Virus record (IMG/VR): IMGVR_UViG_3300031867_000034
Span: 1 to 64,000 of that record
DNA: 64,000 bases
Origin: a virus
Taxonomy: Duplodnaviria; Caudoviricetes
Strand: one strand, 5' to 3'
Position 1 is the stretch's first letter. Each line of letters opens with the position of its first letter. Below are positions 1 through 41,495 of this stretch, in pieces. The notes under the pieces were generated by a model. It was not told the DNA's origin. It did no database searches and worked only from the letters and a program-made list of their open reading frames with translations. The position numbers and the translations under genes are program-made.

Positions 1-127
1 AGTTTAGACGAGGGGAATGAAAGATGGGAATGTCGATTGAGAAAGCAATAGAGATAATAAACCATTATTTAGATTATCCCAAAGAAGAAGTAAGAAAAGC
101 CTTATTAGTAGCAATAGAAATCATGCG
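1..127 (+). repeat. Exact 127-bp direct repeat, copy 1
   Basis: Base-by-base identical to 36347-36473; first mismatch at 128 (g) vs 36474 (c). Confidence 0.97.
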
Positions 128-260
128 GAAGTATCAGAAGATTGAACAGATATACAACTCATGGAGAACAGGCGATTATAAAGGTTCAAAAGAGTGTATG
201 GAAGATATGGGAGAGGTATTAGAAGATGGGAATAACACAACTAACCCAAAAAATAATTGA
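24..260 (+). CDS. Small mosaic-array hypothetical protein
   Basis: RBS GAGGGG; contains MRKYQKI and EVLEDGN linker motifs shared with ORFs at 36039 and 36370. Confidence 0.7.
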   Translation: MGMSIEKAIEIINHYLDYPKEEVRKALLVAIEIMRKYQKIEQIYNSWRTGDYKGSKECMEDMGEVLEDGNNTTNPKNN

Positions 261-438
261 ACGTGAATTTTGTCCTCGTTGTTTAAACTACATTGATAAA
301 CAGTATATATTCAGAGATTGTGAAAGTGGCATAACTATTACAATGGGAACAGTAAAAGATTGTAAATTTCATACTGATACAAGTTGGATATGTGATTTCA
401 AGGAGCAGGAAAATGGTAATGACAAGACAAAAGGCTGA
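226..438 (+). CDS. Small Cys-containing hypothetical protein
   Basis: CPRC motif; ATG lies inside the GAGGTATTAGAAGATGGGAATA linker. Confidence 0.6.
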   Translation: MGITQLTQKIIEREFCPRCLNYIDKQYIFRDCESGITITMGTVKDCKFHTDTSWICDFKEQENGNDKTKG

Positions 439-652
439 AACAATATTTGCCAATGTATTGACTGATGATACAGTTATTAAAGAGTTAAAAGAAGCACTGC
501 TGTTAGCCATTGAAGATATGCACAAGATGGCAGTGATTGAAGAAATTGTGAGGGTAGAAGATGAAAATAATGATTAGTGGAACATCACCCTACTCCATGA
601 ATGTGAAAATGATGATAGCAAGATATGTTCTGCGGAAAGTGAGAGGTAGAAA

Positions 653-1036
653 ATGGGAATGACGATTGAGCAAGCCGAAAAACTTCTTGATGATTTAGCA
701 ACACAGGAAGAACTTCTTTGTAAAAGAGCAGATGATGCAAGTGGTTATACAAGAAGTGGCAACGAAAGCATACGAACGAGTAATGCCAAGACGCACGAAC
801 AACATGTAAAGGAATACAGACAGATTCTTAGATATTTGGCAGAGTACCGATTGATGCAAGCCGACTACGAAAACCGCTTAAAGGCTGATATGGTGGCTAT
901 GCTTACAGAGATACAGTTGGAGATTGAGGGGCTTGAAGTCCCATTGTTATATCTTGCAGAAGATTACGAAGGTGGAGTATTAGATTGTAAAAAGATTATT
1001 CAACAGAAAATCAATGCATTGGAAGGAAAAACATAA
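653..1036 (+). CDS. Mosaic-array hypothetical protein
   Basis: RBS GAGAGGT; RLKADMVAMLTE(I/L)QLEIE block shared with 36572-36916. Confidence 0.7.
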   Translation: MGMTIEQAEKLLDDLATQEELLCKRADDASGYTRSGNESIRTSNAKTHEQHVKEYRQILRYLAEYRLMQADYENRLKADMVAMLTEIQLEIEGLEVPLLYLAEDYEGGVLDCKKIIQQKINALEGKT

Positions 1037-3516: not shown

Positions 3517-4095
3517 ATGATTGGAATATACGCTATCAAAAATAATGATAATGGAAAAATTTATATTGGACAAAGTAAGGATTTATCACATAGGAAATCC
3601 ACACATTTATATGATTTGAAAAATAACCGGCATCATAATGAAGTATTGCAAGCAGATTATAACAAGAATCCGGATGCTTTTGTTTTTGAAATATTATGTA
3701 AGTGTGGTGCAGATGATTTGGATGATTTAGAGAAGTATTATATTCAGAAATTCAAAAGCATTGATGCGAAGTATGGCTATAATTTAGATGGTGGCGGATT
3801 AAAAAATTTTACATGTTCGGAATCCACAAGAAAAAAGAGAAGTAATTTCCAAAAAGGCAACAAGAATATGCGTGGAGTTAAGCTATCTGAAGAATGGAAA
3901 AGGCATATATCCGAGGCAAACCAAAAGAAAAAAGTTATTTGCATTGAAACCGGTATTGTTTATAAAAGCTCCACAGAGGCGGCAAAACTAACCGGATTGC
4001 ACCGAACAAAGATTGTTTCCGTATGTACCGGCAACAGAAAAACAACCGGAGGTTATCATTTTAAATACTATGAACAAGAAAACATTGATAGATAA
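3517..4095 (+). CDS. GIY-YIG homing endonuclease with C-terminal NUMOD1-like HTH
   Basis: GIY(4)...YIGQS, conserved E, YNL; C-terminal VICIETGIVYKSSTEAA; overlaps the TerL start. Confidence 0.9.
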   Translation: MIGIYAIKNNDNGKIYIGQSKDLSHRKSTHLYDLKNNRHHNEVLQADYNKNPDAFVFEILCKCGADDLDDLEKYYIQKFKSIDAKYGYNLDGGGLKNFTCSESTRKKRSNFQKGNKNMRGVKLSEEWKRHISEANQKKKVICIETGIVYKSSTEAAKLTGLHRTKIVSVCTGNRKTTGGYHFKYYEQENIDR

Positions 4096-5341: not shown

Positions 5342-6781
5342 ATGAGGACATATCAAGATTTATTGGCATTAGGTGATAATGAATCCTTGAGGAAAGATTT
5401 TATCATTTCCGCTATTGCAGACCACAAGGCAACACCGGAATACAAGATTGCCAAAGATGCGGAAATGTATATGAAAACATTAAATCCTACGATAATGGAA
5501 TATAAAAAGCTATTATATACCATTACCGGTGAGGCGGTGCCGGATAACTTTAGTGCCAATCATAAATGTGCATCTTCATTCTTCAAAAGATTTGTTACCC
5601 AGGAAAACCAATATTTGCTTGGTAATGGTACAACTTTTGGAAATGATGCAACCAAGGAAAGATTAGGTGGAGAAGATTTTGATGTGCAATTGCAGAAAGT
5701 CGGAAGGGCGGCGCTTATTGGTGGTGTGGCTTTTGGCTTTGCTAACTTAGACCATATCGAAGTATTTAAGTACACAGAGTTTAAGCCATTATGGGATGAA
5801 GAGGATGGAGCATTAAAAGCCGGAATCCGTTATTGGCAAGTTGCTGATGATAAACCATTAAGGGCAACACTTTATGAACTTGATGGATATACGGAATATA
5901 TCAAGCACAAAGATGGTGAATTGGAAGTGCTGAAGGAGAAAAGACCATATCAACAGATTGTGGCAAAATCCGAAGTAGATGGCACCGAGATTCTTGATGG
6001 GCAGAATTATCCAACATTTCCAATTGTTCCTTTATGGGGCAATCCGGAACATCAATCCGAACTTGTAACCATCCGGAGCCAAATTGATGCATATGATTTA
6101 ATTAAATCCGGCTTTGCAAATGATTTAGATGATGCAAGTATGATTTATTGGACTATAACCAATGCCGGCGGAATGGATGATGTTGATTTGGCACAATTCC
6201 TGGAAAGAATGAAGGTTGTTAAAGCGGCTGTTGTTGGTGATGATGCAAGCGGAAATGCAAAGGCAGAGGCGCATACAATTGATGTTCCTTACCAAAGCCG
6301 TGAAGCATACCTTACAAGGCTTGAATCTGATATGTACAAAGATGCAATGGCTCTTGATACAACACAGATTGCCGCCGGGCAAGTAACAGCCACACAGATT
6401 GAAGCCGCTTATGAGCCACTAAATGAAAAAGTGGATATGTTTGAATATTGTGTATTAGAGTTTGTGCATGGCATCCTGGATGTTCTTGGAATTGATGATA
6501 CTGTTTCATTTGTTCGCTCAAAGATGGCAAACAAGGCGGAAGAAATAAATGCACTTCTTGCCGGTGCTGAATACTTAAGCCAGGAATACATCACAGAAAA
6601 ACTTCTTACAATCCTTGGCGATATTGATAAGGTTGAAGAGGTATTGAATCAGATTGCAGATGATTCCATGAGCCGCATGAGCGGTGGCAACAATGAAGAA
6701 AATCTTCAAGAAAGTGAAGAAAATCTTCAAGAAAGTGAAGAAAATCTTCAAGAAGAGGATATAAATAATGAAGTTGGATGA
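5342..6781 (+). CDS. Portal protein, SPP1 gp6-like
   Basis: 479 aa directly after TerL; NHK..SFFKRFV.Q..QYLLGNG N-terminal motif; acidic tail. Confidence 0.85.
   Translation: MRTYQDLLALGDNESLRKDFIISAIADHKATPEYKIAKDAEMYMKTLNPTIMEYKKLLYTITGEAVPDNFSANHKCASSFFKRFVTQENQYLLGNGTTFGNDATKERLGGEDFDVQLQKVGRAALIGGVAFGFANLDHIEVFKYTEFKPLWDEEDGALKAGIRYWQVADDKPLRATLYELDGYTEYIKHKDGELEVLKEKRPYQQIVAKSEVDGTEILDGQNYPTFPIVPLWGNPEHQSELVTIRSQIDAYDLIKSGFANDLDDASMIYWTITNAGGMDDVDLAQFLERMKVVKAAVVGDDASGNAKAEAHTIDVPYQSREAYLTRLESDMYKDAMALDTTQIAAGQVTATQIEAAYEPLNEKVDMFEYCVLEFVHGILDVLGIDDTVSFVRSKMANKAEEINALLAGAEYLSQEYITEKLLTILGDIDKVEEVLNQIADDSMSRMSGGNNEENLQESEENLQESEENLQEEDINNEVG
6695..6754 (+). repeat. 21-bp tandem repeat (EENLQES x~3) in portal C-terminus
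   Basis: gaagaaaatcttcaagaaagt x2 plus an 18-bp partial copy. Confidence 0.95.
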
Positions 6782-27196: not shown

Positions 27197-27249
27197 GAGG
27201 CTAGAAATAGCCTCCTTTTCTTTTTATTTAAAAATACATCAAATAATAG

Positions 27250-27278
27250 TTGACAATCCTATAAAAATAGTTTATATT
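27250..27278 (+). promoter_or_regulatory. Early sigma-A promoter P1
   Basis: TTGACA-17-TATATT; near-duplicate of 33008. Confidence 0.8.
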
Positions 27279-28148
27279 ATAATCAACAAATGATTTAGGA
27301 GGGCAACAAGATGAAGAGATATAGAGTAGAATTTGAATTTATGTATAGAGATCCGGAAATATCTGATGGCAAGTACCACATAGATTACTTGGATAACAAT
27401 GGTGAGGGATTCACATTACAAGAGGCGGAGGATGTTGCCAAGTTTGTGAGAGCAAGTGAAATTCTTTATATAAAGTGGGCTGAAGTGGTAGAAATGGAGG
27501 GATAACATGTTTTGGATATACGATACTAAGGAAAAGAGAACAGCAACAAGAACCGGATGGAGCATCAGATGCAATGCCGAAAGAGTATGCCAGGCAATGA
27601 ACATTAAGCATGAAGGCATTGAAGAAGTTGATAAGCCGGCAAATGAAAGAAGATTCATAATCAAGGAGGCATGAAATGAAAGTGGCTATTGTAAATCTTC
27701 ATGGAATAAAAGATGGCGATAAGGCATATTATAGGAAACTTGGGCTTTGCTATGATTTTGTATCTGATAAAACTATTTCCGGAACGGAATTGACCGAAGC
27801 GGAAGCCATTAATGTTTTGAATCATAAAGACTATTACTTGAAAATGTATGGTGCTGAAAAAATGGTGATTGAATCATAAGGAGGCATGAACATGGTAAGA
27901 ATGTATGGCAAATATAAGTGTTGTGAATGTGGTGAAATATTCCGGGAAAGTGAAATAAAGGTGGTGGAAGAGAACCGGGGAGAGTTTTGGGGATTCCCTT
28001 GCACCGAAAGAATGCATTATAGCCCTTGTTGCATGGCAAGTTTTGAAGAGGCTTATGAAGATGAAGAAGAATTGATTGATGAATAAATTTAAGGTTGTAC
28101 ATCATATCAATCAATAGTATAATAGGTGATAGGAAGGAGGCGAAACAC

Positions 28149-28353: not shown

Positions 28354-28971
28354 ATGAACGTATTTGAAACATTGAATAATGCCAATGTAAATGGGCATAC
28401 AGAAGAGAAAAACGGATTAACATATTTATCATGGGCTTGGGCTTGGGCTGAAGTAAAAAAGGCTTTTCCGGAGGCAAATTACACTATTGAGAAATTCAAT
28501 GGATTACCATATGTGTATGATGAAAACACCGGTTACATGGTTTATACAACAGTAACCATTGAGGGCATCACGCATGAAATGTGGTTGCCGGTTATGGATG
28601 GAGCCAACAAGGCTATGAAAGCAAAGCCATATACTTACACTGTAAAAAGGTATGGAAAAGAAGAAGCAAAAACAGTTGCCGCCGCAACAATGTTTGATGT
28701 AAACAAAGCCATTATGCGGTGCCTTGTAAAGAATCTTGCCATGTTTGGGCTTGGGCTTTATATATATGCCGGAGAAGATTTGCCGGAAGTGGAACAGAAT
28801 GCAAATCAAATGGCATATCCTTCCAAGGATGAAATGCTTAAAGAAGTATCAAAGAGTTATCCGGAAGGTTCCAAAAACCTTGCCGCCCTTCTTGGAACTT
28901 TTGGTGTGGATTCTTTGGATAAAGCAACTGATGAAATGTTAATGGCGGCATATAACAAGGTACATAAATAA
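28354..28971 (+). CDS. Sak-like single-strand annealing protein (DUF1071 / Rad52-like)
   Basis: KNGLTYLSWAWAW, MWLPVMD, RCLVKNLAMFGLGLYIYAGEDLP motifs. Confidence 0.88.
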   Translation: MNVFETLNNANVNGHTEEKNGLTYLSWAWAWAEVKKAFPEANYTIEKFNGLPYVYDENTGYMVYTTVTIEGITHEMWLPVMDGANKAMKAKPYTYTVKRYGKEEAKTVAAATMFDVNKAIMRCLVKNLAMFGLGLYIYAGEDLPEVEQNANQMAYPSKDEMLKEVSKSYPEGSKNLAALLGTFGVDSLDKATDEMLMAAYNKVHK

Positions 28972-29501
28972 TGGAAAAGATAACCGGAACCGCGCTTGAT
29001 ATAGTCACATTCTTAATGGGTGATAATGCTGATAAGAAGGCATTGTATGATTTATCCTTACATGAAGAAAAAAAGAAACGCTCTTTGGATTCTAACGCAT
29101 ATTTTCATGTGCTTGTTGCTAAATTAGCACAAGCACAGAATCCGCCCATAAGCAAAGCCAGGTGCAAAAATATGATGATTGCCGATTATGGGCAAGAAGA
29201 ATATATTGATGGGCAAATAGTAGTGCTTAAAAGCAATCTTCCGCCGGAAAAAATGTGCAATGTGGAATATTTGCATACATCATGTGTGAAGATTACGGAA
29301 GAAAATGGCAAGGAAGTGTACTTTTACAAGGTGTATCGAGGCACCCACACTTATGATACAAAGGAAATGGCAAAGCTGATTGATGGAACCATCCAGGAAT
29401 GTAAAAATGTGGGAATTGAAACAGCCACACCCAAACAGATTGAAGAAATGCAGAGGCTTTGGGAGCAACATTATTTGAATAAAAAGGAGAATAACAAATG
29501 A
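28971..29501 (+). CDS. NinB/Orf-like recombination protein
   Basis: RSLDSNAYFH and THTYDTKEMAKLIDG motifs. Confidence 0.7.
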   Translation: MEKITGTALDIVTFLMGDNADKKALYDLSLHEEKKKRSLDSNAYFHVLVAKLAQAQNPPISKARCKNMMIADYGQEEYIDGQIVVLKSNLPPEKMCNVEYLHTSCVKITEENGKEVYFYKVYRGTHTYDTKEMAKLIDGTIQECKNVGIETATPKQIEEMQRLWEQHYLNKKENNK

Positions 29502-30428: not shown

Positions 30429-30827
30429 ATGCATATTACAATTCCACTTGCGCCGATTAGCAAAAAGAATCACTCTCGCATTATTTGGAATAAGGCAACA
30501 AAAAAGCCAATGATTATTCCATCAAAGCAATATAAGGATTATGAAAAGGCATGTGCGGAATATATACCAAATGTGCCTTTTAATACATATGATTGCCCGG
30601 TTAATGTATGTTGTATATTTTATATGCCAACACGGCGCAAAGTTGATATTTCCAACTTATTAAATGCTATTCTTGATTTATTAGTACATTATGGTGTAAT
30701 ATTGGATGATAACAGAAATATAGTTTATTCGGTTGATGGTTCAAGGGTTTTGTATGACAAAAACTTTCCGAGAACCGAAATTGAAATAACAGAAATCGAG
30801 GATGCGGAAATATGGGTAAAAAAATAG
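30429..30827 (+). CDS. rusA: RusA-family Holliday junction resolvase
   Basis: RKVDISNL..AILDLLV...ILDDN motif. Confidence 0.88.
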   Translation: MHITIPLAPISKKNHSRIIWNKATKKPMIIPSKQYKDYEKACAEYIPNVPFNTYDCPVNVCCIFYMPTRRKVDISNLLNAILDLLVHYGVILDDNRNIVYSVDGSRVLYDKNFPRTEIEITEIEDAEIWVKK

Positions 30828-31477
30828 ACCTAACAGGGCAAAGATTTGGTAGGCTTGTTGTTATTGAAGAATCAGAACTTCGTAATAGTAGCGGTAATGT
30901 AAAGTGGAAATGTAAATGTGATTGTGGGAATATTACTTTTTCAAATGGGTATGATTTAAGAAAAGGTGTTGCGCAATCATGCGGATGTTATAATAGAGAT
31001 TTGGTAAAAAAAGATAATCCAAAATATAAAAGACCATTATATTATATTTATCATTCAATGAAATGTAGGTGTTACAATCCAAATGATAGAGCATTCCATA
31101 ATTATGGAGCAAGGGGAATAAAAATTAGTGATAAGTGGAATACATATGAAAAGTTTGAAGAATGGGCATTAGACAAAGGATATAAAAAAGGCTTATGGCT
31201 AGATAGAATTAATAACGATTTGGATTATTCGCCGGATAATTGTAGATGGGCAACACCTAAAGAACAGCAAAACAACAAGCGAACTAATCATTATATAACA
31301 ATTAACAACGATACAAAAACGATACAAGAATGGGCTGAAATATCCGGAATAAAACCCATGACAATAACAAGAAGAATTGAATTGGGATGGAAAAATGAAG
31401 ATTTATTAAAACCGGTAAATGCCAGGTATAGCCATCCTTTAGAAATAAAAAGAGCAATGAAGAGTTGTAAATTATAA
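30812..31477 (+). CDS. HNH homing endonuclease
   Basis: DLTGQRFGRLVV, CKCDCG, SCGC, YGARGI, LDRINND..YSPDNCRW motifs. Confidence 0.88.
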   Translation: MGKKIDLTGQRFGRLVVIEESELRNSSGNVKWKCKCDCGNITFSNGYDLRKGVAQSCGCYNRDLVKKDNPKYKRPLYYIYHSMKCRCYNPNDRAFHNYGARGIKISDKWNTYEKFEEWALDKGYKKGLWLDRINNDLDYSPDNCRWATPKEQQNNKRTNHYITINNDTKTIQEWAEISGIKPMTITRRIELGWKNEDLLKPVNARYSHPLEIKRAMKSCKL

Positions 31478-32440: not shown

Positions 32441-33004
32441 ATGCAAAGAGAAGAGATTGCAAGTGTGCTTAATGTAATCCGTGATACATATGATGTGAAC
32501 TTTACGGAACTAACCATGGAAGTTTGGTTTAATGCTCTAAAAGAATTTGATTTTGAGGATGTAAAAAAGGCAACCTTCCAATATATCCGCACCGGAAAGT
32601 TTAAGCCAAAACCGGCAGATATTATAGAGTTGATTGTTGAGAATAAAGCCCCACAGATGCCGGAAGAAATGAGCGCACAAGAGGCATGGTCTTTAGTATA
32701 TAAGGCAATATGCAATAGTGCATATAATTCCATCCAAGAGTATGAGAAGTTGCCGGAAATGGCAAAAAAAGCCATTGGAAGTGCTGATAATCTAAGGAGC
32801 CATGCAATTGATGCGGATTTCAATATGGGTGTGGCACAAAGCCAATTTATAAAGGCGTACAACACTTTATTGGAGCGCAAGAAAAATGATTATGCCATGA
32901 GGCTTGAAGCTGTTAAGCGTGGTGATTTGTCTATTGAGCAATTAACCCAGGGTGTTATTGAGAAAATGGAAAATAAATTATTGTTAGAAGAAAATATAAA
33001 ATAA
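32441..33004 (+). CDS. Helicase loader/inhibitor-like protein
   Basis: W..AL.......V..A...YI..GKF.PKPADI motif; follows the initiator. Confidence 0.65.
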   Translation: MQREEIASVLNVIRDTYDVNFTELTMEVWFNALKEFDFEDVKKATFQYIRTGKFKPKPADIIELIVENKAPQMPEEMSAQEAWSLVYKAICNSAYNSIQEYEKLPEMAKKAIGSADNLRSHAIDADFNMGVAQSQFIKAYNTLLERKKNDYAMRLEAVKRGDLSIEQLTQGVIEKMENKLLLEENIK

Positions 33005-33007
33005 GTG

Positions 33008-33036
33008 TTGACAATCCTATAAATAAAGTTTATTAT
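33008..33036 (+). promoter_or_regulatory. Early sigma-A promoter P2
   Basis: TTGACA-17-TATTAT; shares TTGACAATCCTATAAA with P1. Confidence 0.8.
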
Positions 33037-33801
33037 AATATCAACAAGTAATTTATAGGAGGTATAAACATGGAACTTTTAGAATTATGGGATTTATCAA
33101 GAGTACCGCTTTTTGATATGGATGCACCTGGATTTTATGAATTGGCAAGGCTTGAAGCATTTGATAAGGATATATGCAAGATTCCGGGATATATGCCAAT
33201 TGAAACAGTTTTAAAGTATAAGGATGCAGAGGTTGAAGAAATTTCATGGCATAATTGCGGCATAGCGGTTAGATTTTACAAGGGTGATGAAGATGAAGCA
33301 TAACATGATTAAAAGGGGCATTACAATCAAAAATAAAAAGGGATTATACATTGTTGCTGATGTCGATACAATAGATGGCTTTGCCATCATCCGAGAGATT
33401 ATGAGAAATAAAAAGGGTGAGATATTTTATGGCAAGAATATCTTCATAGGCTTAAAGCAATTGGATGATTATGTGGTTGTATAAGGAGGGCGAAAATGTT
33501 TGATAAGCAAGAAAAATTAGTGGAGTTTTTTGAAAAGCATGGCATTGAATGCAAATGGATAAACCATGATAAGTACGGATTCAGCCGGCGTTTAATATTC
33601 ACGGCAAAAGATGCGGTATGTGAAATTGAGTGGTTTACCAATTATTCAACAATAATCCTGGATGGTGTGGCACATTATTGGTTCGATAAGATTGATGATT
33701 CAAACACATATCCATGTGAAGGTGATTGGCTTGAATTTAAATTTGGCAATGAAGAGCATGGGTTACATGTAAGGGTTAAATAAAATCCGGAGGGCGGAGA
33801 A

Positions 33802-34368
33802 GTGAAAAGAGTTTTGGCATGGGGAATAATTTTTGCATATTTGGCTTTTTTAGGCGTTTTAATTTATCCGGCGGTAAATTCTTCAACAGAAATAAAAGAA
33901 GTGAATTTTGAGCCGATAGAAAAGCAAATCGAGCCATCCAAAGAGATAAACGCACAAGAGATTATGGATGAACTTGTTACGGAATCCCAGGAAGAGCGGA
34001 TAAAGGGATTTGAGATTACATACGATGAAGCCCAAATGTTAATGAAGATTGCAATGGCTGAAGCGGAAAGTGATGGCATCCAAGGCAAAGCAATGGTAAT
34101 GGCGGTTGTTCTTAATAGGGTGGAAGATGATAGATTCCCGGATAGCATTGAAGAAGTAATATTCCAGGAACATCAATTTTCACCAATATCCGATGGAAGA
34201 TATGCAGAGGCACAACCGGATGTGGAGTGCCACTTGGCTTTGGCTGAAATTGAGCGAGGCGAATATGATACAGTTGATGCCTTATATTTTGAGAATGCGG
34301 AAGAAAGTTGGCAATCAAAGAATTGCGAATATCTTGGAACTGTTGGGCATCACCGGTTCTATAAGTGA
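33802..34368 (+). CDS. SleB-like cell wall hydrolase (Hydrolase_2) with N-terminal TM
   Basis: AEAES, VVLNRV...FPDSIEEVIFQEHQFSP, ALYF, GHHRFY motifs. Confidence 0.88.
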   Translation: MKRVLAWGIIFAYLAFLGVLIYPAVNSSTEIKEVNFEPIEKQIEPSKEINAQEIMDELVTESQEERIKGFEITYDEAQMLMKIAMAEAESDGIQGKAMVMAVVLNRVEDDRFPDSIEEVIFQEHQFSPISDGRYAEAQPDVECHLALAEIERGEYDTVDALYFENAEESWQSKNCEYLGTVGHHRFYK

Positions 34369-35044
34369 GGCAGAATATGAAATGCAATAAAGATTGTTTT
34401 AATTGCACATATAAAGATTGTGAATGGGATGAAAGCAAACTAAAAGACCGGAGCCAATACCACCATGACCGGTATATGAAAAAGAAACTTGGAACATGGA
34501 ATAACACATGCCGGTTTTGTGGAAAAGTTGTTAAAGGTGAAATGATTAGGATTCACAGCAAGAATTATTGCTCAATGGATTGTGTTTTATGCCATTTGTA
34601 TGAAATAAATGAGCGGTATATGAGAATTGTTAATGTATGAACTACCATCACCGAAAACATCGGAAATGATTTCTACAATACCTTGCGGTATAGTAAGGCA
34701 CATTCACAGTGCCGCTACTCCGTTGGGCAAAACCCTTCGGCATACTTGAAAATGTTATTTGATGCGCTTGCGGCGCTTGGGAACTAACACCTTGTATATT
34801 TTACGTGCTATAGGTTCTTGGTTTTTTAGATTCATGGCACAACTCCATATATACAGTTTTCAAGGTTCCAATTATGTTATTCTAACACGAACAATTGTTT
34901 GCGTAAAGCTGAATTTTATAATGCTAAAATGCCGCCGGCGGCTTTTGGTCCATCCGGATAGATACTAAAAAATAAGAAAGGAGAATCTCCCTTCAATTTG
35001 ATAGTGTAAAACCACTATCCGGATGGAAAATATAAAAGGTTGGA

Positions 35045-35107
35045 GTGAAAATAATTTATTTAATATTATTGGGGATTTTGATTTGGCTTTATAGCCGGGA
35101 TTATTAG
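35045..35107 (+). CDS. 20-aa hydrophobic peptide (candidate)
   Basis: GTG start, MKIIYLILLGILIWLYSRDY; purine-rich AAAGGTTGGA upstream. Confidence 0.35.
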   Translation: MKIIYLILLGILIWLYSRDY

Positions 35108-35117
35108 GAGGATTCTA

Positions 35118-35738
35118 ATGGGAATGACAAGAGAACAGATATTAGAGATTCTTGAAAACTATAAATTGCGCATACCGCCAACAGTTTTCTATGAATTAAA
35201 GGCAGATATTGTGAATTTTGAAGAGCCAACTACTAAGAATAATTTAGCGGTTGATTGTATGTCAAGCAAGATTGCAAAAGAAATGAATCTTGAAGTTGCA
35301 AACATGAAGAAAATTGTGCAAGCCTTATCCTCAGTAACGTCAACAAATAGAGAGTGCGTTGATTGTATATCAAGGGCAGATGCTTTGCGTGTGGCTAAAA
35401 ATGAATATTTAAGAGGTTGGCATAATGCACTTTGCAAGGCATTGAGTGAAAAATATTCAATTCATTGTGAAGAAGGCAATTTTAGCGTAATACAAGAAGA
35501 AACTATAACAGGGTTAGGACTATCAATGAATTGTGCATTAGGTAAAGATGCTGAAAGCTATATGAGCACTATGCCCTCAGTAACACCACAAGAGCCAAAG
35601 ACAAGGCATTGGATAAAAATCAAACCATATCCTTTACAGATGCACAACTACGAATGTAGTGAGTGTGGTCATGAAACAGATGATAATACAGAAAACTATT
35701 GTAGCGAATGCGGGGCAAAAATGGAAAGCGAGGGATAA
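35118..35738 (+). CDS. Multi-module mosaic protein with C-terminal Zn ribbon
   Basis: Internal repeated VDC(M/I)S and SVT linkers; CSECG..YCSECGAKME. Confidence 0.75.
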   Translation: MGMTREQILEILENYKLRIPPTVFYELKADIVNFEEPTTKNNLAVDCMSSKIAKEMNLEVANMKKIVQALSSVTSTNRECVDCISRADALRVAKNEYLRGWHNALCKALSEKYSIHCEEGNFSVIQEETITGLGLSMNCALGKDAESYMSTMPSVTPQEPKTRHWIKIKPYPLQMHNYECSECGHETDDNTENYCSECGAKMESEG

Positions 35739-36038
35739 ATATGGCAACATATGAAATCACAGCAGAATTGAATCTGAAAAAGATTATTGCAGAATCAAGG
35801 GAAGTTGCACAAGCCTTAAATGAGTTTGCGGATAATCTTGAACGGATTGAAAAGAAGTATGCAAAGCCACAGGAAAGTGAGGCAGACAATGGGAATAACA
35901 ATCAACATAACTGAGGGCATCAACGACTATGAATTTTATAATGTGCCGAAAAAAGTAGCAAAAGCAATAATTACACTTCTACATGAGTGTGAGAAGGAAG
36001 ATAGCACTATTGTTTCAGCTATCAGTGAGAGGTAGAAG

Positions 36039-36281
36039 ATGAAAATGACGATTGAAGAAAGTCTTGAATGGCTTATATCAAGAAAAGAACACTATGAAAT
36101 GGATGATAATTGTCAAGAATTAGCGAAAGCCTTAGATATAGCTATAGATACCATGCGTAAGTATCAGAAGATAAGAGAAATAGCTTTTCCATTACAGTTT
36201 TGTTCAACAGACAAACTTGAGCATGAAGCTATTATGAAAATATGTGAGGTATTAGAAGATGGGAATAGTAATTGCACATAG
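36039..36281 (+). CDS. Mosaic-array hypothetical protein
   Basis: MRKYQKI and EVLEDGN linkers. Confidence 0.7.
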   Translation: MKMTIEESLEWLISRKEHYEMDDNCQELAKALDIAIDTMRKYQKIREIAFPLQFCSTDKLEHEAIMKICEVLEDGNSNCT

Positions 36282-36346
36282 GCGTTGTCCTAAATGTGGT
36301 TGTAAATGTTTTAGAAATATGAATAGGTGTTGGCATTGTGGATATA

Positions 36347-36473
36347 AGTTTAGACGAGGGGAATGAAAGATGGGAATGTCGATTGAGAAAGCAATAGAGA
36401 TAATAAACCATTATTTAGATTATCCCAAAGAAGAAGTAAGAAAAGCCTTATTAGTAGCAATAGAAATCATGCG
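36347..36473 (+). repeat. Exact 127-bp direct repeat, copy 2
   Basis: Identical to 1-127. Confidence 0.97.
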
Positions 36474-36585
36474 CAAGTATCAGAAGATAGTCGATATAGT
36501 TTCCTTGAATGATGAAGAATTTAAACAATGTGGGTTAAAGGAATTAAAGGAAATATTGGAGGTTATAGCTGATGGTAGGAATTAA
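36370..36585 (+). CDS. Mosaic-array protein sharing its N-terminal half with ORF 24-260
   Basis: Identical up to MRKYQKI, then unrelated. Confidence 0.7.
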   Translation: MGMSIEKAIEIINHYLDYPKEEVRKALLVAIEIMRKYQKIVDIVSLNDEEFKQCGLKELKEILEVIADGRN

Positions 36586-36916
36586 AAACTTTGTAATGCC
36601 ATATAATTGCTATGATTGTGACCTACACAATTATCATGAGTGTGATTTTACAGGAGAGTCAATAGAAGAGGATTATTGTTGGAACGGAGATAGCAGAGAA
36701 AAGCATTGTCCTCTTAGAGAAGTAGAAGCAATTCCAAAAGACCAATACGAAGCAAGATTAAAGGCTGATATGGTGGCTATGCTTACAGAGTTACAGTTGG
36801 AGATTGAGGAATTAGATACACCGAATAATGGTAGTGCCTATATGGATTGTTCAGAGATTATCCAACAGAAAATAGACAGTTTGAAAGGGGCAGACAATGA
36901 CAGTAAAAGATCTTAA
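36572..36916 (+). CDS. Mosaic-array protein sharing its C-terminal module with ORF 653-1036
   Basis: CYDC...HCPL N-terminus plus RLKADMVAMLTELQLEIE. Confidence 0.7.
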   Translation: MVGIKNFVMPYNCYDCDLHNYHECDFTGESIEEDYCWNGDSREKHCPLREVEAIPKDQYEARLKADMVAMLTELQLEIEELDTPNNGSAYMDCSEIIQQKIDSLKGADNDSKRS

Positions 36917-37112
36917 AGAGCAGTTAAACAATTATCCTGATAATTTGGAAGTAATACTCACAAATGATGATGTTTTTCTGCCAGGGTTATACAAGGCAAC
37001 CGAAACAAGGCAAGAAGACGGATATTTGTATATTGATACGGATTTTGAAGAGAGGATTTAACATGAAGCATTAAATTTGTCCAGGAAGTCCGACTTCCGG
37101 TTAAAAAAAATA

Positions 37113-37141
37113 AAAAGCCCTTGGGAGCTATCTCTCAAGGG
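37113..37141. terminator. Bidirectional terminator at the convergence of the rightward array and leftward early operon
   Basis: AAAAG-CCCTTG-N12-CAAGGG-T. Confidence 0.7.
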
Positions 37142-37162
37142 TATTATTTTTGTCCTATTAAG

Positions 37163-37468
37163 TTAATCAATCCATCCAGAGTATTCTAAAACTGTTATTT
37201 GATCGTCTGTTATAGTTTCCGGTGTTCCTGAGTTATACATGATTGCTGCAGCTATATCGTTTATTTGCCAGTCTTCGCAGCCTTGCCAGGTGTAAACCAT
37301 GCCGGTGAACGTCTCAAGATAAACAATGTCATTTGTCCGGTCAATGTCCGTCACTATAAAAGTTTGTGGATATATTGAATCTTCGCCGCTTCTCTTGGCT
37401 TTTACTGTGGTGCTTGTCATAACTAAAATGCTGCTAAGTACTAACAATGCAAATATTATTCTTTTCAT
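37163..37468 (-). CDS. Secreted/membrane-anchored small protein
   Basis: N-terminal signal-like hydrophobic stretch; RBS GGAGG. Confidence 0.7.
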   Translation of the reverse strand: MKRIIFALLVLSSILVMTSTTVKAKRSGEDSIYPQTFIVTDIDRTNDIVYLETFTGMVYTWQGCEDWQINDIAAAIMYNSGTPETITDDQITVLEYSGWID

Positions 37469-37647
37469 GGTGTTGGCCTCCTTAATAATTTAAAAAATCT
37501 CTCATTTGATTTGTTGTATATCCGGTAAGATCAGCAGTCTCTTCCTCAATCCGCCCGTTTTTCGTCCTATAGTAACTAATTGCAAAAATATGTCCGTTTT
37601 CTATAAACCAGGTCCCACAATGCAGATCAATCAATTTTGCTATTTGC

Positions 37648-37863
37648 TTATTTGTTAACTGTCTCATTGTTTGCCTCCAAAATTGCTAAATGCTTTTTAG
37701 CGGTCTTCAGTGTCATTGTCTTAGCATATGAATAATCATAGCTCCATTTATAACCATTTTTTGATGTGCTCATCAGGTATAAGCCCCATTTACCAGGAAC
37801 GTCTGCGCCGGTTTGATGTATGACATATCCGTGACAGGTCTTTTCTAGTTCGTATTTTCTCAT
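37648..37863 (-). CDS. Early hypothetical protein
   Basis: RBS AGGAAGG; member of the leftward operon. Confidence 0.65.
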   Translation of the reverse strand: MRKYELEKTCHGYVIHQTGADVPGKWGLYLMSTSKNGYKWSYDYSYAKTMTLKTAKKHLAILEANNETVNK

Positions 37864-37909
37864 TTGTTGCCCTTCCTGCCGGTTTTAGGGTTGCCGGCGC
37901 CCTTTTCAA

Positions 37910-38410
37910 TTAGTCCATCCTTACACAATACGGTATGCCGTAAATATCTCTTAAATCAGTGTTGAATGATCTGCAGTAGGCTTCTAGTTTTTCCTTTGTC
38001 TGTCTTATGTACTCCTTAACATATTGCATGTTGTCGATTTCGCTCTCTATCTCGAAAGCATTTCGGAGAAGCTCTTCCCGGTGGATCTTCAGCGATTCAA
38101 TAATTTCATTTGCTGGAATCCTTTTTCCGTCCTTCAGTGCTTCAGTCTTGATGTATGCTAAATTGATTCTGTGGCTGTAGCCGTGGCGCTGGTATGTATA
38201 AATCTCTAAACAATAATCATTTTTGCTGCAAAAAACATTGTTTTCAGTTGCTTCCTTCAGGGCCTTTTCAAGTCTGCAATTATAAACTTTTCCGTCAAAG
38301 CTCTTAATGATCTGAGTTATTGTTGGAATATACTTTGTCGCTTCTCTGTAAGCTGTGGCGCGTTCCTGGGCTTCCTTGTTGGCTGCTTCTATATCTCCGT
38401 AAAATCTCAT
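37910..38410 (-). CDS. Early hypothetical protein
   Basis: 166 aa; RBS GGAG. Confidence 0.7.
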   Translation of the reverse strand: MRFYGDIEAANKEAQERATAYREATKYIPTITQIIKSFDGKVYNCRLEKALKEATENNVFCSKNDYCLEIYTYQRHGYSHRINLAYIKTEALKDGKRIPANEIIESLKIHREELLRNAFEIESEIDNMQYVKEYIRQTKEKLEAYCRSFNTDLRDIYGIPYCVRMD

Positions 38411-38469
38411 TTTGTCTCCATTCCTCCGGGAGTCTTTAGCTGCTCCCGGTCAGCTCGTTTTATGTCCTA

Positions 38470-39084
38470 TTAGTAAGCTACTACAGCATATTTGTTATTG
38501 ATTCTTTCAAGGATTTTGACGCCTTCAAAACCTAATGATTTATAATAATCGGCCTTATTCATGGCGCTTGTATAATCGTCTGCGAAGGGGTGCGCGTCCG
38601 GGCAATTGTCACACAGGAGAGCTTCTTCCTTTGTATAGCCGTCTGCGTTGCTTTTATAAAGCTCCATTGATGAAATATTGAAATATTTTGAGGTTGATTC
38701 AGGTTGTTCCATGATTCCGTGAAGTGTTAGCCCTGTTATCGGATCTTTATCTATAAAATAATAATCAACTTTTACTGGGGTGCCATTCTTGTAAATGTCG
38801 GCATAAATAGCATCATAGTGATAATGCCAGTCAATATTATTTTCTTTAAAAAGCTTTATCATGGCGCTCGCTGCGGTGTATGTGAATGTAAAAGTTAAGA
38901 AGTTCACCGGCTTTTCAACCTTTTCAATGATTCCAGCATCTAACCATGCGCGTGCTGTGACTTCTGATTTTTCAAGCGGCTGATATGCAAAACTTGCAGC
39001 AGTTCCGGCTTTTCTGTATTCCTGAAGATTGTTGTCTCTTGCGATCTGTTCAGCTTTTGCGGTATATACATAATTTGTTTTCAT
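38470..39084 (-). CDS. Early hypothetical protein
   Basis: 204 aa; RBS AAGGAG. Confidence 0.7.
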   Translation of the reverse strand: MKTNYVYTAKAEQIARDNNLQEYRKAGTAASFAYQPLEKSEVTARAWLDAGIIEKVEKPVNFLTFTFTYTAASAMIKLFKENNIDWHYHYDAIYADIYKNGTPVKVDYYFIDKDPITGLTLHGIMEQPESTSKYFNISSMELYKSNADGYTKEEALLCDNCPDAHPFADDYTSAMNKADYYKSLGFEGVKILERINNKYAVVAY

Positions 39085-39436
39085 TTGTTTTTTCTCCTTT
39101 TCTTTTAAGTGGTCCGGGGCTTTTAAGTTGCCCCGGTTGATTGTTATTTATGCCAGTTATTAAATTTTTCGATTGCTTCGGCTCTTGTCTCTGCTATTAT
39201 TTTGTCTTGGTAAAGGTCTTCGACTAAGATCCTACAAGATACCTGAGCAGGAAAATAATCGCTTGCGGGCCATTCATAATCTAAAATCAAACTTGCAAAG
39301 GCTCTTGACGCTATACATTCATTTTTTGGATTTAACATTTGTTTGTCCTCCTTGTTTTGTCCTATTAGGGTTATTTGGTAAAACCTTCCGCCGGTATCGG
39401 TCCGGTTGTGATTCTCTCCGGAAGGTGTGAAGGCTT

Positions 39437-39919
39437 TTAACCTTCAAGGGCTTTTTGCTGGTTCTCATATTGTTTGGATTCCCACATGTTGCGAAGGTCT
39501 TCCATGTTATAAACTTTTCCATTTCTCTTGTGGTATTCACCTTCGTGGAAGTACCAGGCCGCTTTTTTTGCTGAAAATCTAAAGTGTAATTCTTTTAGCT
39601 GATCCTTATATTCTTTTGTGTTACCTGTTACCCAGATCCAGAAACCAATCAGCTCAACTATGCAGCCGTTCATTTTTGTAAGTGTTCTAATCAGGTCGGC
39701 GAACTGTTCCGGTGTCTCGTCTGTTTCTTTTTCGTAAGTCTTGCCTTCATGATTCTTATGTACGTTCTTAAGTCTCTTAAATGCTTCCTGGTATTCTGAA
39801 AACATCTGTTTAAACTCTTCAGCGTTTCCGCCGTTGTCTGGGTGAAGATCCTTAGCTAACTTATGGAATGTTGCTTTAACCTCTTCAAGTGTTGTGCACT
39901 GTGCGAAATATCTTGTCAT
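39437..39919 (-). CDS. J-domain protein
   Basis: F.KLAKDLHPDNGG HPD motif; C-terminal WIWVTG..K..L.F.FSAKK.AWY domain. Confidence 0.8.
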   Translation of the reverse strand: MTRYFAQCTTLEEVKATFHKLAKDLHPDNGGNAEEFKQMFSEYQEAFKRLKNVHKNHEGKTYEKETDETPEQFADLIRTLTKMNGCIVELIGFWIWVTGNTKEYKDQLKELHFRFSAKKAAWYFHEGEYHKRNGKVYNMEDLRNMWESKQYENQQKALEG

Positions 39920-39983
39920 ATCTTTGTCCTCCTATATGATTTATTTGGTTGGGTTGTTTGTTGTTTGGTTATCTTGTAAGTTA

Positions 39984-40082
39984 ATAATAAAACGTAATGC
40001 ACATTACGTCAATAAGCATATTTAACAAAATGCACATTACGGTTTTGTATATTTTGCATAATGTGCATTATGATTATATGGT
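39984..40082. promoter_or_regulatory. Divergent promoters with three palindromic operators
   Basis: Leftward TTGACG-17-TATTAT (40012-39984); rightward TTGCAT-17-TATGGT (40054-40082); operators (G/A)TAATG-N2-CATTA at 39992, 40027 and 40057. Confidence 0.8.
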
Positions 40083-40142
40083 GTTATATTATCTTTAGGC
40101 GGTAGCTTTTCCCCTGTTTTTATATAGAGGAGGCTATAATAA

Positions 40143-40229
40143 ATGCTTTTATTTACTTATCAAGATATAATTCAGACTTGCTTATTATTAGTTGCTATCA
40201 TTGGAATAATATTGAAGGTTAAGAAATAA
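40143..40229 (+). CDS. Type I toxin, holin-like single-TM peptide (not in ORF track)
   Basis: MLLFTYQDIIQTCLLLVAIIGIILKVKK; RBS GAGGAGG; convergent antisense RNA unit. Confidence 0.7.
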   Translation: MLLFTYQDIIQTCLLLVAIIGIILKVKK

Positions 40230-40236
40230 AGACATT

Positions 40237-40325
40237 AAAAAACCGCCCCAAAGTTTGGCGACTCAGGCGGTTTTTTAATAAACTGTAACTGTTAACCAAT
40301 AGGGGCGAAGCTATCGCCTCTTTGT
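40237..40325 (-). ncRNA. Candidate type I antitoxin RNA
   Basis: Minus-strand TTGAAA-17-TATATT promoter (40360-40332); bidirectional terminator AAAAAACCGCC...GGCGGTTTTTT (40237-40276). Confidence 0.6.
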
Positions 40326-40374
40326 AATAAAAATATATCATAATGTTAACAATTTTTCAATAAGGGGGTATTAT

Positions 40375-40608
40375 ATGCCAATAGATATAGAAAAAAGAAA
40401 TAAGCGCCAATATGCTTGGGCCGTAGAAAATAAAGAGCGGCTTAATGTAATGCTAGACAAGGGAACCAGTGGAAGAATTGATAGTGTACTTACTGCCGGA
40501 GAAACAAGATCAAGCTTTATAAGGGAAGCAATAGAAAAAGAATTGTATTCTAGAGGATCAGAAAAGAAAATAGTAGTAGAAGATCCAGAGCTAAAAAATC
40601 AAAAATAA
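40375..40608 (+). CDS. Arc/ribbon-helix-helix DNA-binding protein
   Basis: ERLNVMLDKG...SFIREAIEKEL pattern. Confidence 0.7.
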   Translation: MPIDIEKRNKRQYAWAVENKERLNVMLDKGTSGRIDSVLTAGETRSSFIREAIEKELYSRGSEKKIVVEDPELKNQK

Positions 40609-40735
40609 AAAACTTGTGGCATGAAGGGACAGAAAATGTATTATATTGATATTGTGAGAAAGTTAAAAAATCCCCCTACATTTTTTTAACTTTAGTTGAT
40701 ACCCTCAAAGGCTACACTTTAGAAAGCGGAACGGA

Positions 40736-40770
40736 AAGCAGCTAATAATATTTTATTAGTTGCTTTTTTG
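40736..40770 (+). terminator. Intrinsic terminator
   Basis: AAAGCAGCTAATAA-TATT-TTATTAGTTGCTTTTTT. Confidence 0.75.
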
Positions 40771-40883
40771 TTTGCACTGGTTCAGGTGCTTCCGTTGTTC
40801 AGGATCATCCGACCAGGAAAAGAGAAAAGAAGCAAAAGAGAAAAAAATTAATAATTGTATAAAAGAACTAAGGATATAAAACT

Positions 40884-41495
40884 ATGGAAGTAAACAACAA
40901 TATTAAAATTGATCCTGAAAAACTAAATAATAAAATTGCTGCTGATCTTCCAGAAGTAAAAAGAACACCAGATGGAAAAATAGATATAAAAGCCATTGCA
41001 ATTGGTACAGATGAAAAAGGCCGTTACATTATACCGGATAATATATTTGATGCTTATTTAAAAGAATTGCCTCCGGGAACTGGTAACGCTTCAAAAACTT
41101 TTAGAGCTTACAACGGCGGCAAATTAGCACAGCTTGAAAATGATCCAGAAGAGGCTTCAAAGCGTGGAAAAGTTGGAGCACCAGCGAGTAACAAGACGCA
41201 AGCGACACGACGAAGTATTAAGGAAATACTTGAAGAATTAAGCAAAATGACAGTTACAGCGGAAGAAGCGGAAGAATACGGATTAAAAGAAGGTACAACG
41301 CTATTAGAGGCGGCGAACCTGGCACAGATCCGGCGAGCCATGAAGGGCGATACAAAAGCCGCCGAATATATTAGAGATACACTTGGAGAAAAACCCACAG
41401 ATAAAATTGATGCTTCAGTAACAGCCCTAACACCTGAAGACAAGGAAATGTTAGAGCGAGTATCTAAAAGACTTCAGGAAGATCCGAAAGCATAA
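40884..41495 (+). CDS. terS: Terminase small subunit-like protein (phage B)
   Basis: AQIRRAMKGDTKAAEYIRDT is homologous to phage A TerS AQFRKAMKGDTKAFEVLRDT. Confidence 0.65.
   Translation: MEVNNNIKIDPEKLNNKIAADLPEVKRTPDGKIDIKAIAIGTDEKGRYIIPDNIFDAYLKELPPGTGNASKTFRAYNGGKLAQLENDPEEASKRGKVGAPASNKTQATRRSIKEILEELSKMTVTAEEAEEYGLKEGTTLLEAANLAQIRRAMKGDTKAAEYIRDTLGEKPTDKIDASVTALTPEDKEMLERVSKRLQEDPKA

Follow-up and report, generated by a model that had tools for sequence, protein, structure and literature searches.

Results and Discussion

The 64,000-nucleotide (nt) window considered here, that is, the whole stretch of DNA analyzed, is the first 64 kb of the 79,797-bp IMG/VR virus record IMGVR_UViG_3300031867_000034, and our focus is a run of small genes at positions 35118–37061, beginning with the open reading frame (ORF) at 35118 (ORF35118). 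This is the nin-like small-gene region of temperate rumen phages, with the replication/recombination genes on one side of it and the terminase genes on the other; the hosts are probably Firmicutes of the rumen, for instance Butyrivibrio. The small proteins of this region are modular, their modules occur in many partner combinations, the short linkers that join the modules are conserved at silent sites, and DNA similarity between relatives breaks off at these same linkers. As the cause, we infer with good though not full confidence homologous recombination at the conserved linkers of these modular proteins. All coordinates are those of the record, in which we distinguish two phages, A and B, as explained further below.

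Predicted Modules of ORF35118

ORF35118 and the segments into which it divides are as follows:

35118–35738, plus strand: ORF35118, 206-residue modular protein (272 homologs; AlphaFold2 (AF2) model)
35118–35222, plus strand: N-module, residues 1–35, two-helix unit (predicted local distance difference test score, pLDDT, >90)
35223–35264, plus strand: linker 1, first copy, EPTTKNNLAVDCMS, residues 36–49, containing a 17-mer at 35250
35265–35327, plus strand: m1, short helical module, residues 50–70 (the AF2 helix spans residues 42–76)
35328–35375, plus strand: degenerate linker 2 (SSVTS), then another linker-1 core (CVDCISR), residues 71–86, with CCTCAGTAAC at 35329 and the 17-mer at 35358
35376–35573, plus strand: m2, central helical module, residues 87–152 (DNA identity to loci L086 and L088)
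35574–35612, plus strand: linker 2, PSVTPQEPKTRHW, residues 153–165, containing CCTCAGTAAC at 35575
35613–35738, plus strand: C-terminal Zn ribbon (CxxC...CxxC), residues 166–206

An earlier note on this DNA had read ORF35118 as a series of in-frame micro-modules ending in a Zn ribbon, and this reading is supported by the module-wise relatives, the CxxC...CxxC pattern and the predicted structure. Most of the 272 homologs align over just 20–74% of the protein, at 60–91% identity, and single modules are matched at 84–98% identity; among the 119 matches listed, 12 relatives reach a coverage of at least 90%, all of them with identities of at most 50%. The limits of these alignments fall repeatedly at the linkers: of 80 high-identity high-scoring segment pairs (HSPs), 26 start at residues 79–84 (the CVDCIS motif) and 27 end at residues 157–168 (the PSVTPQEP motif). 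A subset of relatives carries m1 and m2 jointly, with HSP starts at residues 46–61.

Predicting the structures of the chimeras had been proposed in the same note as a check, and the AF2 model of ORF35118 (predicted template modeling score 0.38) resembles beads on a string, that is, confident mini-domains connected by low-confidence linkers. Specifically, the model combines N-terminal helices with pLDDT >90, a helical middle, and a Zn ribbon of beta strands with a pLDDT of ~88, and its pLDDT dips at residues 37–42 and 79–82. The Zn ribbon contains the cysteine pairs C180-x2-C183 and C195-x2-C198, with all four cysteines invariant in 13 relatives; its Pfam scores of 25.3 and 23.2 (DUF7129 and Zn_ribbon_15) lie under the cut-offs of 30 and 28.9, respectively, and phrog_10714 matches at residues 166–205.

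The repeated motifs from which the earlier note had argued, namely, the 17-mer at 35250 and 35358, CCTCAGTAAC at 35329 and 35575, and GGCAGACAATG at 35881 and 36889, are all present. The 17-mer, GTTGATTGTAT(G/A)TCAAG, occurs twice in frame, 108 nt apart, encoding VDCMS and VDCIS, and 0 of 100 shuffles contained such a pair. For CCTCAGTAAC, the expected number is 0.04, and the second copy forms the core of the PSVTPQEP linker, which is widespread, although a repeated 10-mer on its own is weak evidence. Taken together, the repeated 17-mer and 10-mer read as two tandem copies of a unit composed of linker 1, a module and linker 2, and the corresponding junction, in which linker 2 is followed by CxDxISR, is also present in L074 and other relatives.

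Partner Combinations among Relatives

Parsing 81 relatives at the linkers gives 53 distinct front–middle–tail combinations, with the ORF35118-type middle found next to at least five tail types and the Zn-ribbon tail next to 30 middle types; as the sample was chosen by similarity to ORF35118, these counts are illustrative and not measurements. In one relative (P0055), an ORF35118-type N-module and Zn ribbon (98% identity, residues 158–206) flank a different Cys-rich middle, and in another (P0118) the ORF35118-type N-module is accompanied by another middle and another tail, the identity of the N-module in these two proteins being 76–85%. A third relative (P0021) has a different front, an ORF35118-type middle and a DUF551 tail, and a fourth (P0362) joins the front half of ORF653, a gene of phage A, to a Zn-ribbon tail. 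DUF551 (PF04448) is found on 14 relatives among the 120 matches listed, each of which also has the central module, and the relative in L086 ends in a WxxxSEKLP-type tail. Single-linkage clustering was rejected as a definition of families, as 73 array ORFs fall into one component through their common linkers.

Silent Sites and Breakpoints in the Linker DNA

The joints comprise linker 1, EPTTKN(D/N)LxVDC(I/M)S(R); linker 2, PSVTPQEP(K/R)xGHW; MRKYQKI; and the stop/start cassette GAAGATGGGAAT. Linker 1 is spelled ACT ACT AAG AAT GAT TTA GGA GTT GAT TGT ATA TCA AGA and linker 2 CCC TCA GTA ACA CCA CAA GAG CCA, and both are near-invariant over 24 distinct family ORFs. As a control for circularity, linker-2 codons were scored only in the 12 ORFs retrieved via linker 1, with the following result:

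CCC: 8 of 10 (background use 0.16)
TCA: 11 of 12 (background use 0.21)
GTA: 11 of 11 (background use 0.38)
ACA: 11 of 11 (background use 0.51)
CCA: 12 of 12 (background use 0.42)
GAG: 9 of 9 (background use 0.32)

The codons of the conserved Zn-ribbon cysteines are, in contrast, mixed (TGT 21 vs TGC 25), such that the silent sites of the linkers appear frozen, in clear contrast to the interiors of the modules.

The same linkers mark the limits of DNA similarity in genes from independent metagenome assemblies. L086:4001–4600 matches ORF35118 at nt 244–470 only, and L088:4001–4501 at nt 245–480 only, in both cases at 92–93% DNA identity. The matched blocks (L086:4145–4371 and L088:4047–4282) consist of m2 and the adjoining linker cores, and extend from GAT TGT ATA TCA, the linker-1 core, to CCC TCA GTA ACA CC(A CAA GAG CCA) of linker 2. 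In the paralog of ORF35118 in phage B (contig 77498–77986), the two linkers alone are alike, over 46 nt at 91% and 34 nt at 94% identity, the first copy of linker 1 matching contig 77634–77679 at 91% between unrelated flanks.

Exact DNA of the three linkers is present in IMG/VR members of the family (about 15, 17 and 14 loci), the spelling being the same down to the silent positions in many phage genes that are unrelated otherwise. Raw IMG/VR counts of the exact 17-mer and 20-mer were discarded as a measure of family size, being inflated by an ATPase, a tape-measure-like protein containing LLPSVTPQETEQP, and out-of-frame noise. The ATPase in question is an unrelated P-loop protein whose gene contains the exact 17-mer (DDVDCISSK) in L010, L011, L020 and ~12 further loci on near-identical viral contigs, which we consider coincidental.

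Probable Joining of Two Phage Genomes in One Record

The earlier note had described 35118–37061 as the right part of a single mosaic array, the left part of which lies at 1–1036. This description does not hold, as the record very probably strings phages A and B together, and the two parts are one map region in two phages. The first 127 bases of the contig are identical to 36347–36473, with a mismatch first seen at 128, and the final 127 bases (79671–79797) are identical to 35889–36015. To judge by the way in which de Bruijn assemblers operate, exact 127-nt repeats at both ends of a contig would be the trace of a walk through the graph at k = 127. The graph is a figure of eight, with two loops and the following common segment:

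35889–36473, no strand assigned: 585-bp segment in both phage genomes, both ends exactly repeated (127 nt each) at the contig end and start

The left edge of this segment is exactly a start codon, and its right edge is the MRKYQKI linker. Loop 1 (1–35888) holds the complete gene set of phage A, including a large terminase (4013), portal (5342), major head protein (9456), tape measure (14034) and DnaD-like initiator (31599). Loop 2 (36474–79670), assigned to phage B, holds a second set unrelated to that of A, with a terminase (42676), portal (44160) and head protein (47249), as well as its own lysogeny genes, namely, an integrase, an ImmA-like protease with a helix-turn-helix repressor, and an antirepressor. 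The largest contigs with relatives of terminase B are 42.8–43.0 kb, those with relatives of terminase A are mostly 34–47 kb and at most 55 kb, and none of the contigs examined carries relatives of both. Because of the two terminase/portal/head sets, the exact end repeats, and the size and separation of the contigs with either terminase, we consider it very likely that the record is two phages joined via the common segment, A of ~36.3 kb and B of ~43.8 kb, and a real 80-kb co-integrate much less likely. The record is listed as a single linear virus with a completeness of 100, despite this figure-of-eight walk through two genomes.

In terms of ownership, 35118–35888 belongs to A, 35889–36473 to both A and B, and 36474–37061 to B. 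The small-gene region of phage A resumes at base 1, and that of phage B starts at contig 77498 (position 13498 of locus L009).

Gene Order and Further Joints

The remaining features of the small-gene region are as follows:

35741–35914, plus strand: helical gene, 57 residues, tail overlapping the start of the next gene (no family match)
35889–36035, plus strand: 48-residue gene whose first codon is the ATG of GGCAGACAATG (48-residue relatives in L047 and L074)
36039–36281, plus strand: 80-residue member of the "MGMTI ... MRKYQKI ... EDGN" small-protein family (linker DNA at 36153–36172)
36255–36266, plus strand: gene-boundary cassette GAAGATGGGAAT, encoding the EDGN tail and the ATG of the following gene
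36259–36366, plus strand: mini Zn-ribbon gene, 35 residues, CxxC...CxxC
36370–36585, plus strand: MRKYQKI-family gene, 71 residues, phage B allele (linker at 36469–36488; diverges from ORF24 after the linker)
36572–36916, plus strand: ORF36572, 114 residues, conserved Cys/His-rich N half and helical-hairpin C half
36897–37061, plus strand: 54-residue gene (phrog_9912) whose start lies at the second GGCAGACAATG
37116–37142, no strand assigned: two-way terminator hairpin at the end of the small-gene operon
1–1036, plus strand: rest of the phage A small-gene region (ORF24, ORF226, ORF392 and ORF653)

Short repeats are enriched in this region (10 repeated 11-mers vs 1.9 in shuffles, and two 14-mers vs 0.05). 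In at least seven other phages, the gene order is constant, running from the modular Zn-ribbon/DUF551 gene(s) to the MRKYQKI gene(s) and on to a coiled-coil gene, with an ORF1036-like gene 3' of the coiled-coil gene in four of them (L083, L019, L038 and L060). Replacement thus appears to proceed slot by slot and not by free permutation, the order of genes and module slots being fixed and the contents of the slots differing. Mapping module order across related phages, as the earlier note had suggested, therefore gives a divided answer: contents are exchanged, but the order of genes and slots is unchanged. Arrays can be far longer than the one studied here, since a related phage (L022 and L039, IMG/VR 3300031994_000050 and 3300024486_000612) has more than 10 consecutive linker-connected genes of this network.

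MRKYQKI is encoded by ATGCGNAAGTATCAGAAGAT, found at 123, 36153 and 36469, and exact in 14 IMG/VR contigs, always in small proteins of the form MGMTI(D/E)... MRKYQKI ... E(V/L)(V/L)EDGN in which the segments 5' and 3' of the motif vary independently. ORF36370, the B allele, had been thought to share only its first half with ORF24, the A allele. Residues 1–40 are indeed identical and divergence sets in directly after MRKYQKI, but the two proteins are still 70% identical end to end. The relatives of ORF36370 are mostly full length, at 55–70% identity, with a minority matching the N half only, at 75–93%.

The claim that ORF36572 shares only its second half with ORF653 is, in turn, correct: the C-terminal halves alone align (residues 59–106 vs 72–125, 57%), and a 52-bp block common to ORF36572 (36758–36809) and ORF653 has 98% DNA identity. 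ORF36572 has more than 1100 homologs, mostly full length and at 60–83% identity, and is no chimera, its full-length form being the usual one in a large family; its AF2 model has helices at residues 56–80 and 88–105 with a pLDDT of ~90, the N half being unmodeled. For ORF653, just one of 150 cluster representatives matches end to end, the others matching either the front or the back half, and ORF653 is the chimeric member of the pair, composed of two modules. Shuffling below the level of the gene, the broader proposal of the earlier note, is therefore upheld for ORF35118, ORF653, and the ORF24/ORF36370 pair, and fails for ORF36572, whose homologs are of the full-length, fixed-order kind that the same note had named as grounds against it; elsewhere, the slot order is fixed and the slot content varies.

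The cassette GAAGATGGGAAT lies at 222–233, 36255–36266, and contig 79667–79678, and occurs in 21 other loci examined, with up to four copies each (~0.1 expected). The repetition of GGCAGACAATG at 35881 and 36889 (0.04 expected) is, like that of CCTCAGTAAC, only mildly improbable by chance. Both copies end in an ATG, with which the 48-residue gene truly starts in the first case (35889) and ORF 36897 begins in the second. As a general cassette or recurring linker, GGCAGACAATG had to be given up: it is absent from the 97 other loci examined and is found in this record only.

Mechanism and Alternative Explanations

Under the mechanism that we favor, genes would be assembled from separately folding modules of ~20–80 residues, joined in frame by short linkers that would serve as homology patches of 20–45 nt. 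Phage recombination enzymes would then swap, duplicate or delete modules at the linkers with the reading frame left intact, the outcome being replacement within slots, with gene and slot order kept. Homologous recombination is the simplest account because it covers the frozen silent sites, the breakpoints at the linkers, and the tandem linker–module–linker duplication. Suitable enzymes are available: the recombination module of phage A (28312–30827) comprises a Sak-like annealing protein (28312), a NinB/Orf mediator (28971–29501), a Mu Gam-like end protector (29498) and a RusA resolvase (30366), and L086 encodes RecT. For such recombinases, homology arms of 35–50 nt are enough in recombineering. 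Rad52-like phage recombinases have been found to be drivers of mosaicism where the homology is short and diverged (PMC3945230). Local gene conversion through the free-standing homing endonucleases encoded inside the B array and beside the A terminase could contribute as well.

Several points weigh against homologous recombination at the linkers. What is seen is sequence and not a recombination event, and patches of 17–45 nt are about as short as recombinases can use. Because the loci belong to rumen phages that are related to one another, codon counts are nonindependent and binomial P values overstate significance, and two linker sets were retrieved by exact DNA search, the sole counter to which is the cross-scoring of each linker in the ORFs of the other. 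The interior of the 585-bp segment is present once in the contig, such that A and B are seen to be identical only over the 127 nt at either end of it. Finally, not every gene is shuffled, as ORF36572 and most relatives of ORF36370 represent ordinary full-length families, and GGCAGACAATG is not general.

The same relatedness of the loci would also suit a different explanation, in which the linkers are mere conserved hinges at domain boundaries, modules are brought together by random nonhomologous joining and selection, and DNA conservation is a by-product of descent and codon bias. Such hinges would be expected at flexible sites, and the linkers do lie at predicted flexible or low-confidence positions; the fixed slot order is likewise what conserved architecture predicts. 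However, the codons fixed at the silent sites of the linkers are minority codons (CCC, TCA, GAG and GGG), when the Cys codons of the modules are mixed, linker DNA is 91–94% identical between genes with no detectable DNA similarity in the flanks, and random joining would not put independent breakpoints within a few nt of the same two motifs. On balance, we regard this explanation as improbable. Somewhat less probable still is that a second job freezes the linker DNA or RNA, either as the target of a homing endonuclease or site-specific enzyme, with gene conversion, or as a peptide processing site. There are several different linkers and not a single site, no RNA family is matched, there is no excess of promoter or terminator motifs, and the products are non-virion early proteins with no protease gene evident nearby. 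Nevertheless, a free-standing NUMOD4-HNH_3 homing endonuclease gene is located inside the phage B array, between two array genes (L009:14261–14776; contig 78261–78776), and a gene for a GIY-YIG endonuclease (3517–4095), whose NUMOD domain is I-HmuI-like, lies directly upstream of the phage A large terminase, slightly overlapping its listed start.

We also considered whether the mosaic is only apparent, with a chimeric contig having created the repeated blocks and half-shared ORFs. The contig does end in exact 127-nt internal copies and does contain two complete phage genomes, as would be expected from a k = 127 graph walk, but this accounts for the left/right layout alone: module sharing, linker codons and breakpoints come from independent contigs, from other samples and assemblers, and the ORF24 and ORF36370 alleles are both intact, both with full-length relatives. 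An assembly artifact is therefore very improbable as the source of the mosaic. Within homologous recombination at the linkers, a further and more tentative step, which we consider plausible but would not press, is that the linkers are more than hinges, namely, crossover points that are built into the reading frame and preserved as DNA for that role, in a phage analog of exon shuffling. If this is true, rumen temperate phages draw on a common pool of mini-domains in many combinations, both within genes and across gene borders.

Comparison with Known Systems

The closest parallel is provided by the tail-fiber adhesins of T-even phages, which recombine at conserved motifs, namely, glycine-rich motifs in gp38 and His boxes in gp37 (PMC3157838; Tetart et al. 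1998, as cited therein). In both cases, short conserved in-frame motifs separate variable gene segments that are swapped between phages at the motifs. Linker 1, linker 2 and MRKYQKI all flank modules that differ between relatives, and the edges of exchange coincide with them: the L086 and L088 blocks end at the DCISR and PSVTP(QEP) cores, and the segment common to A and B ends at MRKYQKI. Unlike the adhesins, which determine host range, the proteins here are small, nonstructural and early, the variable units are whole and often unrelated mini-domains, and the linkers recur over many genes, several times per gene.

In the PeSL (promoter early stem-loop) cassettes of T4-type phages, short conserved DNA borders small accessory genes and mediates their modular shuffling in hyperplastic regions (PMC2839356, PMC4122927). 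Short border DNA mediating the shuffling of small genes is common to both systems, but PeSLs are noncoding promoter and stem-loop elements between genes, whereas the present linkers either encode protein in frame or bridge a stop/start overlap, and also act inside genes. Junctions of the PeSL type were not seen, with 12 promoters vs 11.4 expected, and with the operon-end terminator at 37116–37142 as the sole strong hairpin. The Ea22 variants of lambda and Stx phages carry portable C-terminal domains, including DUF551 (PMC10834534), and resemble the present proteins in being early accessory proteins with a common front and interchangeable tails, DUF551 being among the tails of the ORF35118-type middle. 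Here, in contrast, the hosts are probably Firmicutes and ORF35118 ends in a Zn ribbon and not in DUF551; none of the eight proteins has a Pfam match to the Ead_Ea22 coiled-coil signature, and no DNA-frozen linkers are described for Ea22. Rad52-like relaxed recombination (PMC3945230) likewise exchanges DNA on short homologies, with Sak, NinB, Gam and RusA present in phage A and RecT in a relative; it differs in producing lambdoid mosaics on the scale of genes, over hundreds of bp of diverged homology, instead of at in-frame linkers of 20–45 nt.

Inversion by a shufflon or other site-specific system does not fit, as all linker copies are direct, in frame and on one strand, and the sole integrase is ~13 kb from the nearest array, in the lysogeny module of phage B. 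No diversity-generating retroelement is present among the annotated ORFs, no dedicated search having been made. The nin region of phage lambda lies between the replication and late genes, and consists of small, dispensable and highly mosaic ORFs. The region studied here has the same map position and a similar run of small mosaic ORFs, but there is no common sequence family, and the NinB/Orf homolog of phage A is in the recombination module (28971–29501), outside the studied stretch.

Recombination at T-even adhesin motifs (PMC3157838) and PeSL cassettes (PMC2839356) are thus known; the literature found on intragenic mosaicism and conserved linkers concerns mainly domain shuffling in endolysins, the literature search on the linker motifs themselves gave nothing relevant, and neither the linkers nor the protein network studied here are described in the work found. 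Phage mosaicism is usually told gene by gene, whereas here the joints lie inside small genes, measure 20–45 nt, are frozen at silent sites, and recur over many genes and phages. Whether such joints arise through homology, or are made at random and then selected, is an old debate, and the linkers make the homology model directly testable. The finding also offers a grammar by which small phage proteins, thousands of them unannotated, can be read as chains of mini-domains that are used again and again, which should aid the search for domain partners. At the same time, common linkers and segments can lead assemblers to merge separate phages into one "complete" record, which we note as a warning.

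Function Searches

A blastn search of 35000–37100 against GenBank phages gave no match, and the eight proteins searched against Pfam, PHROGs and NCBIfam gave weak Zn-ribbon matches and two PHROGs of unknown function only. Searching the ORF35118 model against the PDB with Foldseek gave no hit at E <1, the ESM Atlas returned only viral hypothetical clusters, and no Rfam family was found in 33500–41000. For the host-interaction or anti-defense role that the earlier note had thought plausible, no family, fold or atlas match speaks either way. In their map position and portable tails, the genes recall not only the nin region of lambda and the Ea22 variants but also the lambda ea region. It is conceivable, if rather doubtful at present, that the products act early as accessory proteins, with mini-domains that bind partners from the host or the phage.

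Neighboring Genes and Other Observations

Upstream of ORF35118, ~470 nt (34640–35110) contain no convincing ORF; a terminator-like hairpin lies on the minus strand at 34976–34994, and there is no Rfam match. Still further upstream, 33802–34368 encodes a cell-wall hydrolase of the SleB type (Pfam Hydrolase_2, E 1e-21) that has a membrane anchor at its N terminus and is located among early genes and far from the lysis genes. An HNH endonuclease gene (30812–31477) comes after the recombination module of phage A.

On the downstream side, an oppositely oriented block of genes (37163–39919, minus strand) is located between the phage B array and the phage B packaging genes and includes a DnaJ-domain protein (39437–39919); the two other proteins scanned, of 166 and 204 residues, have no family match. 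Bounded by the terminator at 37116–37142, this block looks like a moron cluster. Elsewhere in phage A, a 68-nt direct repeat (27230–27297 vs 32988–33055, 79% identity) includes a promoter close to the consensus (TTGACA ... TATAAT-like) and is probably a repeated early promoter of this phage, and the 3' end of its portal gene contains three 21-nt repeats in tandem (6694–6773; EENLQES-type unit).

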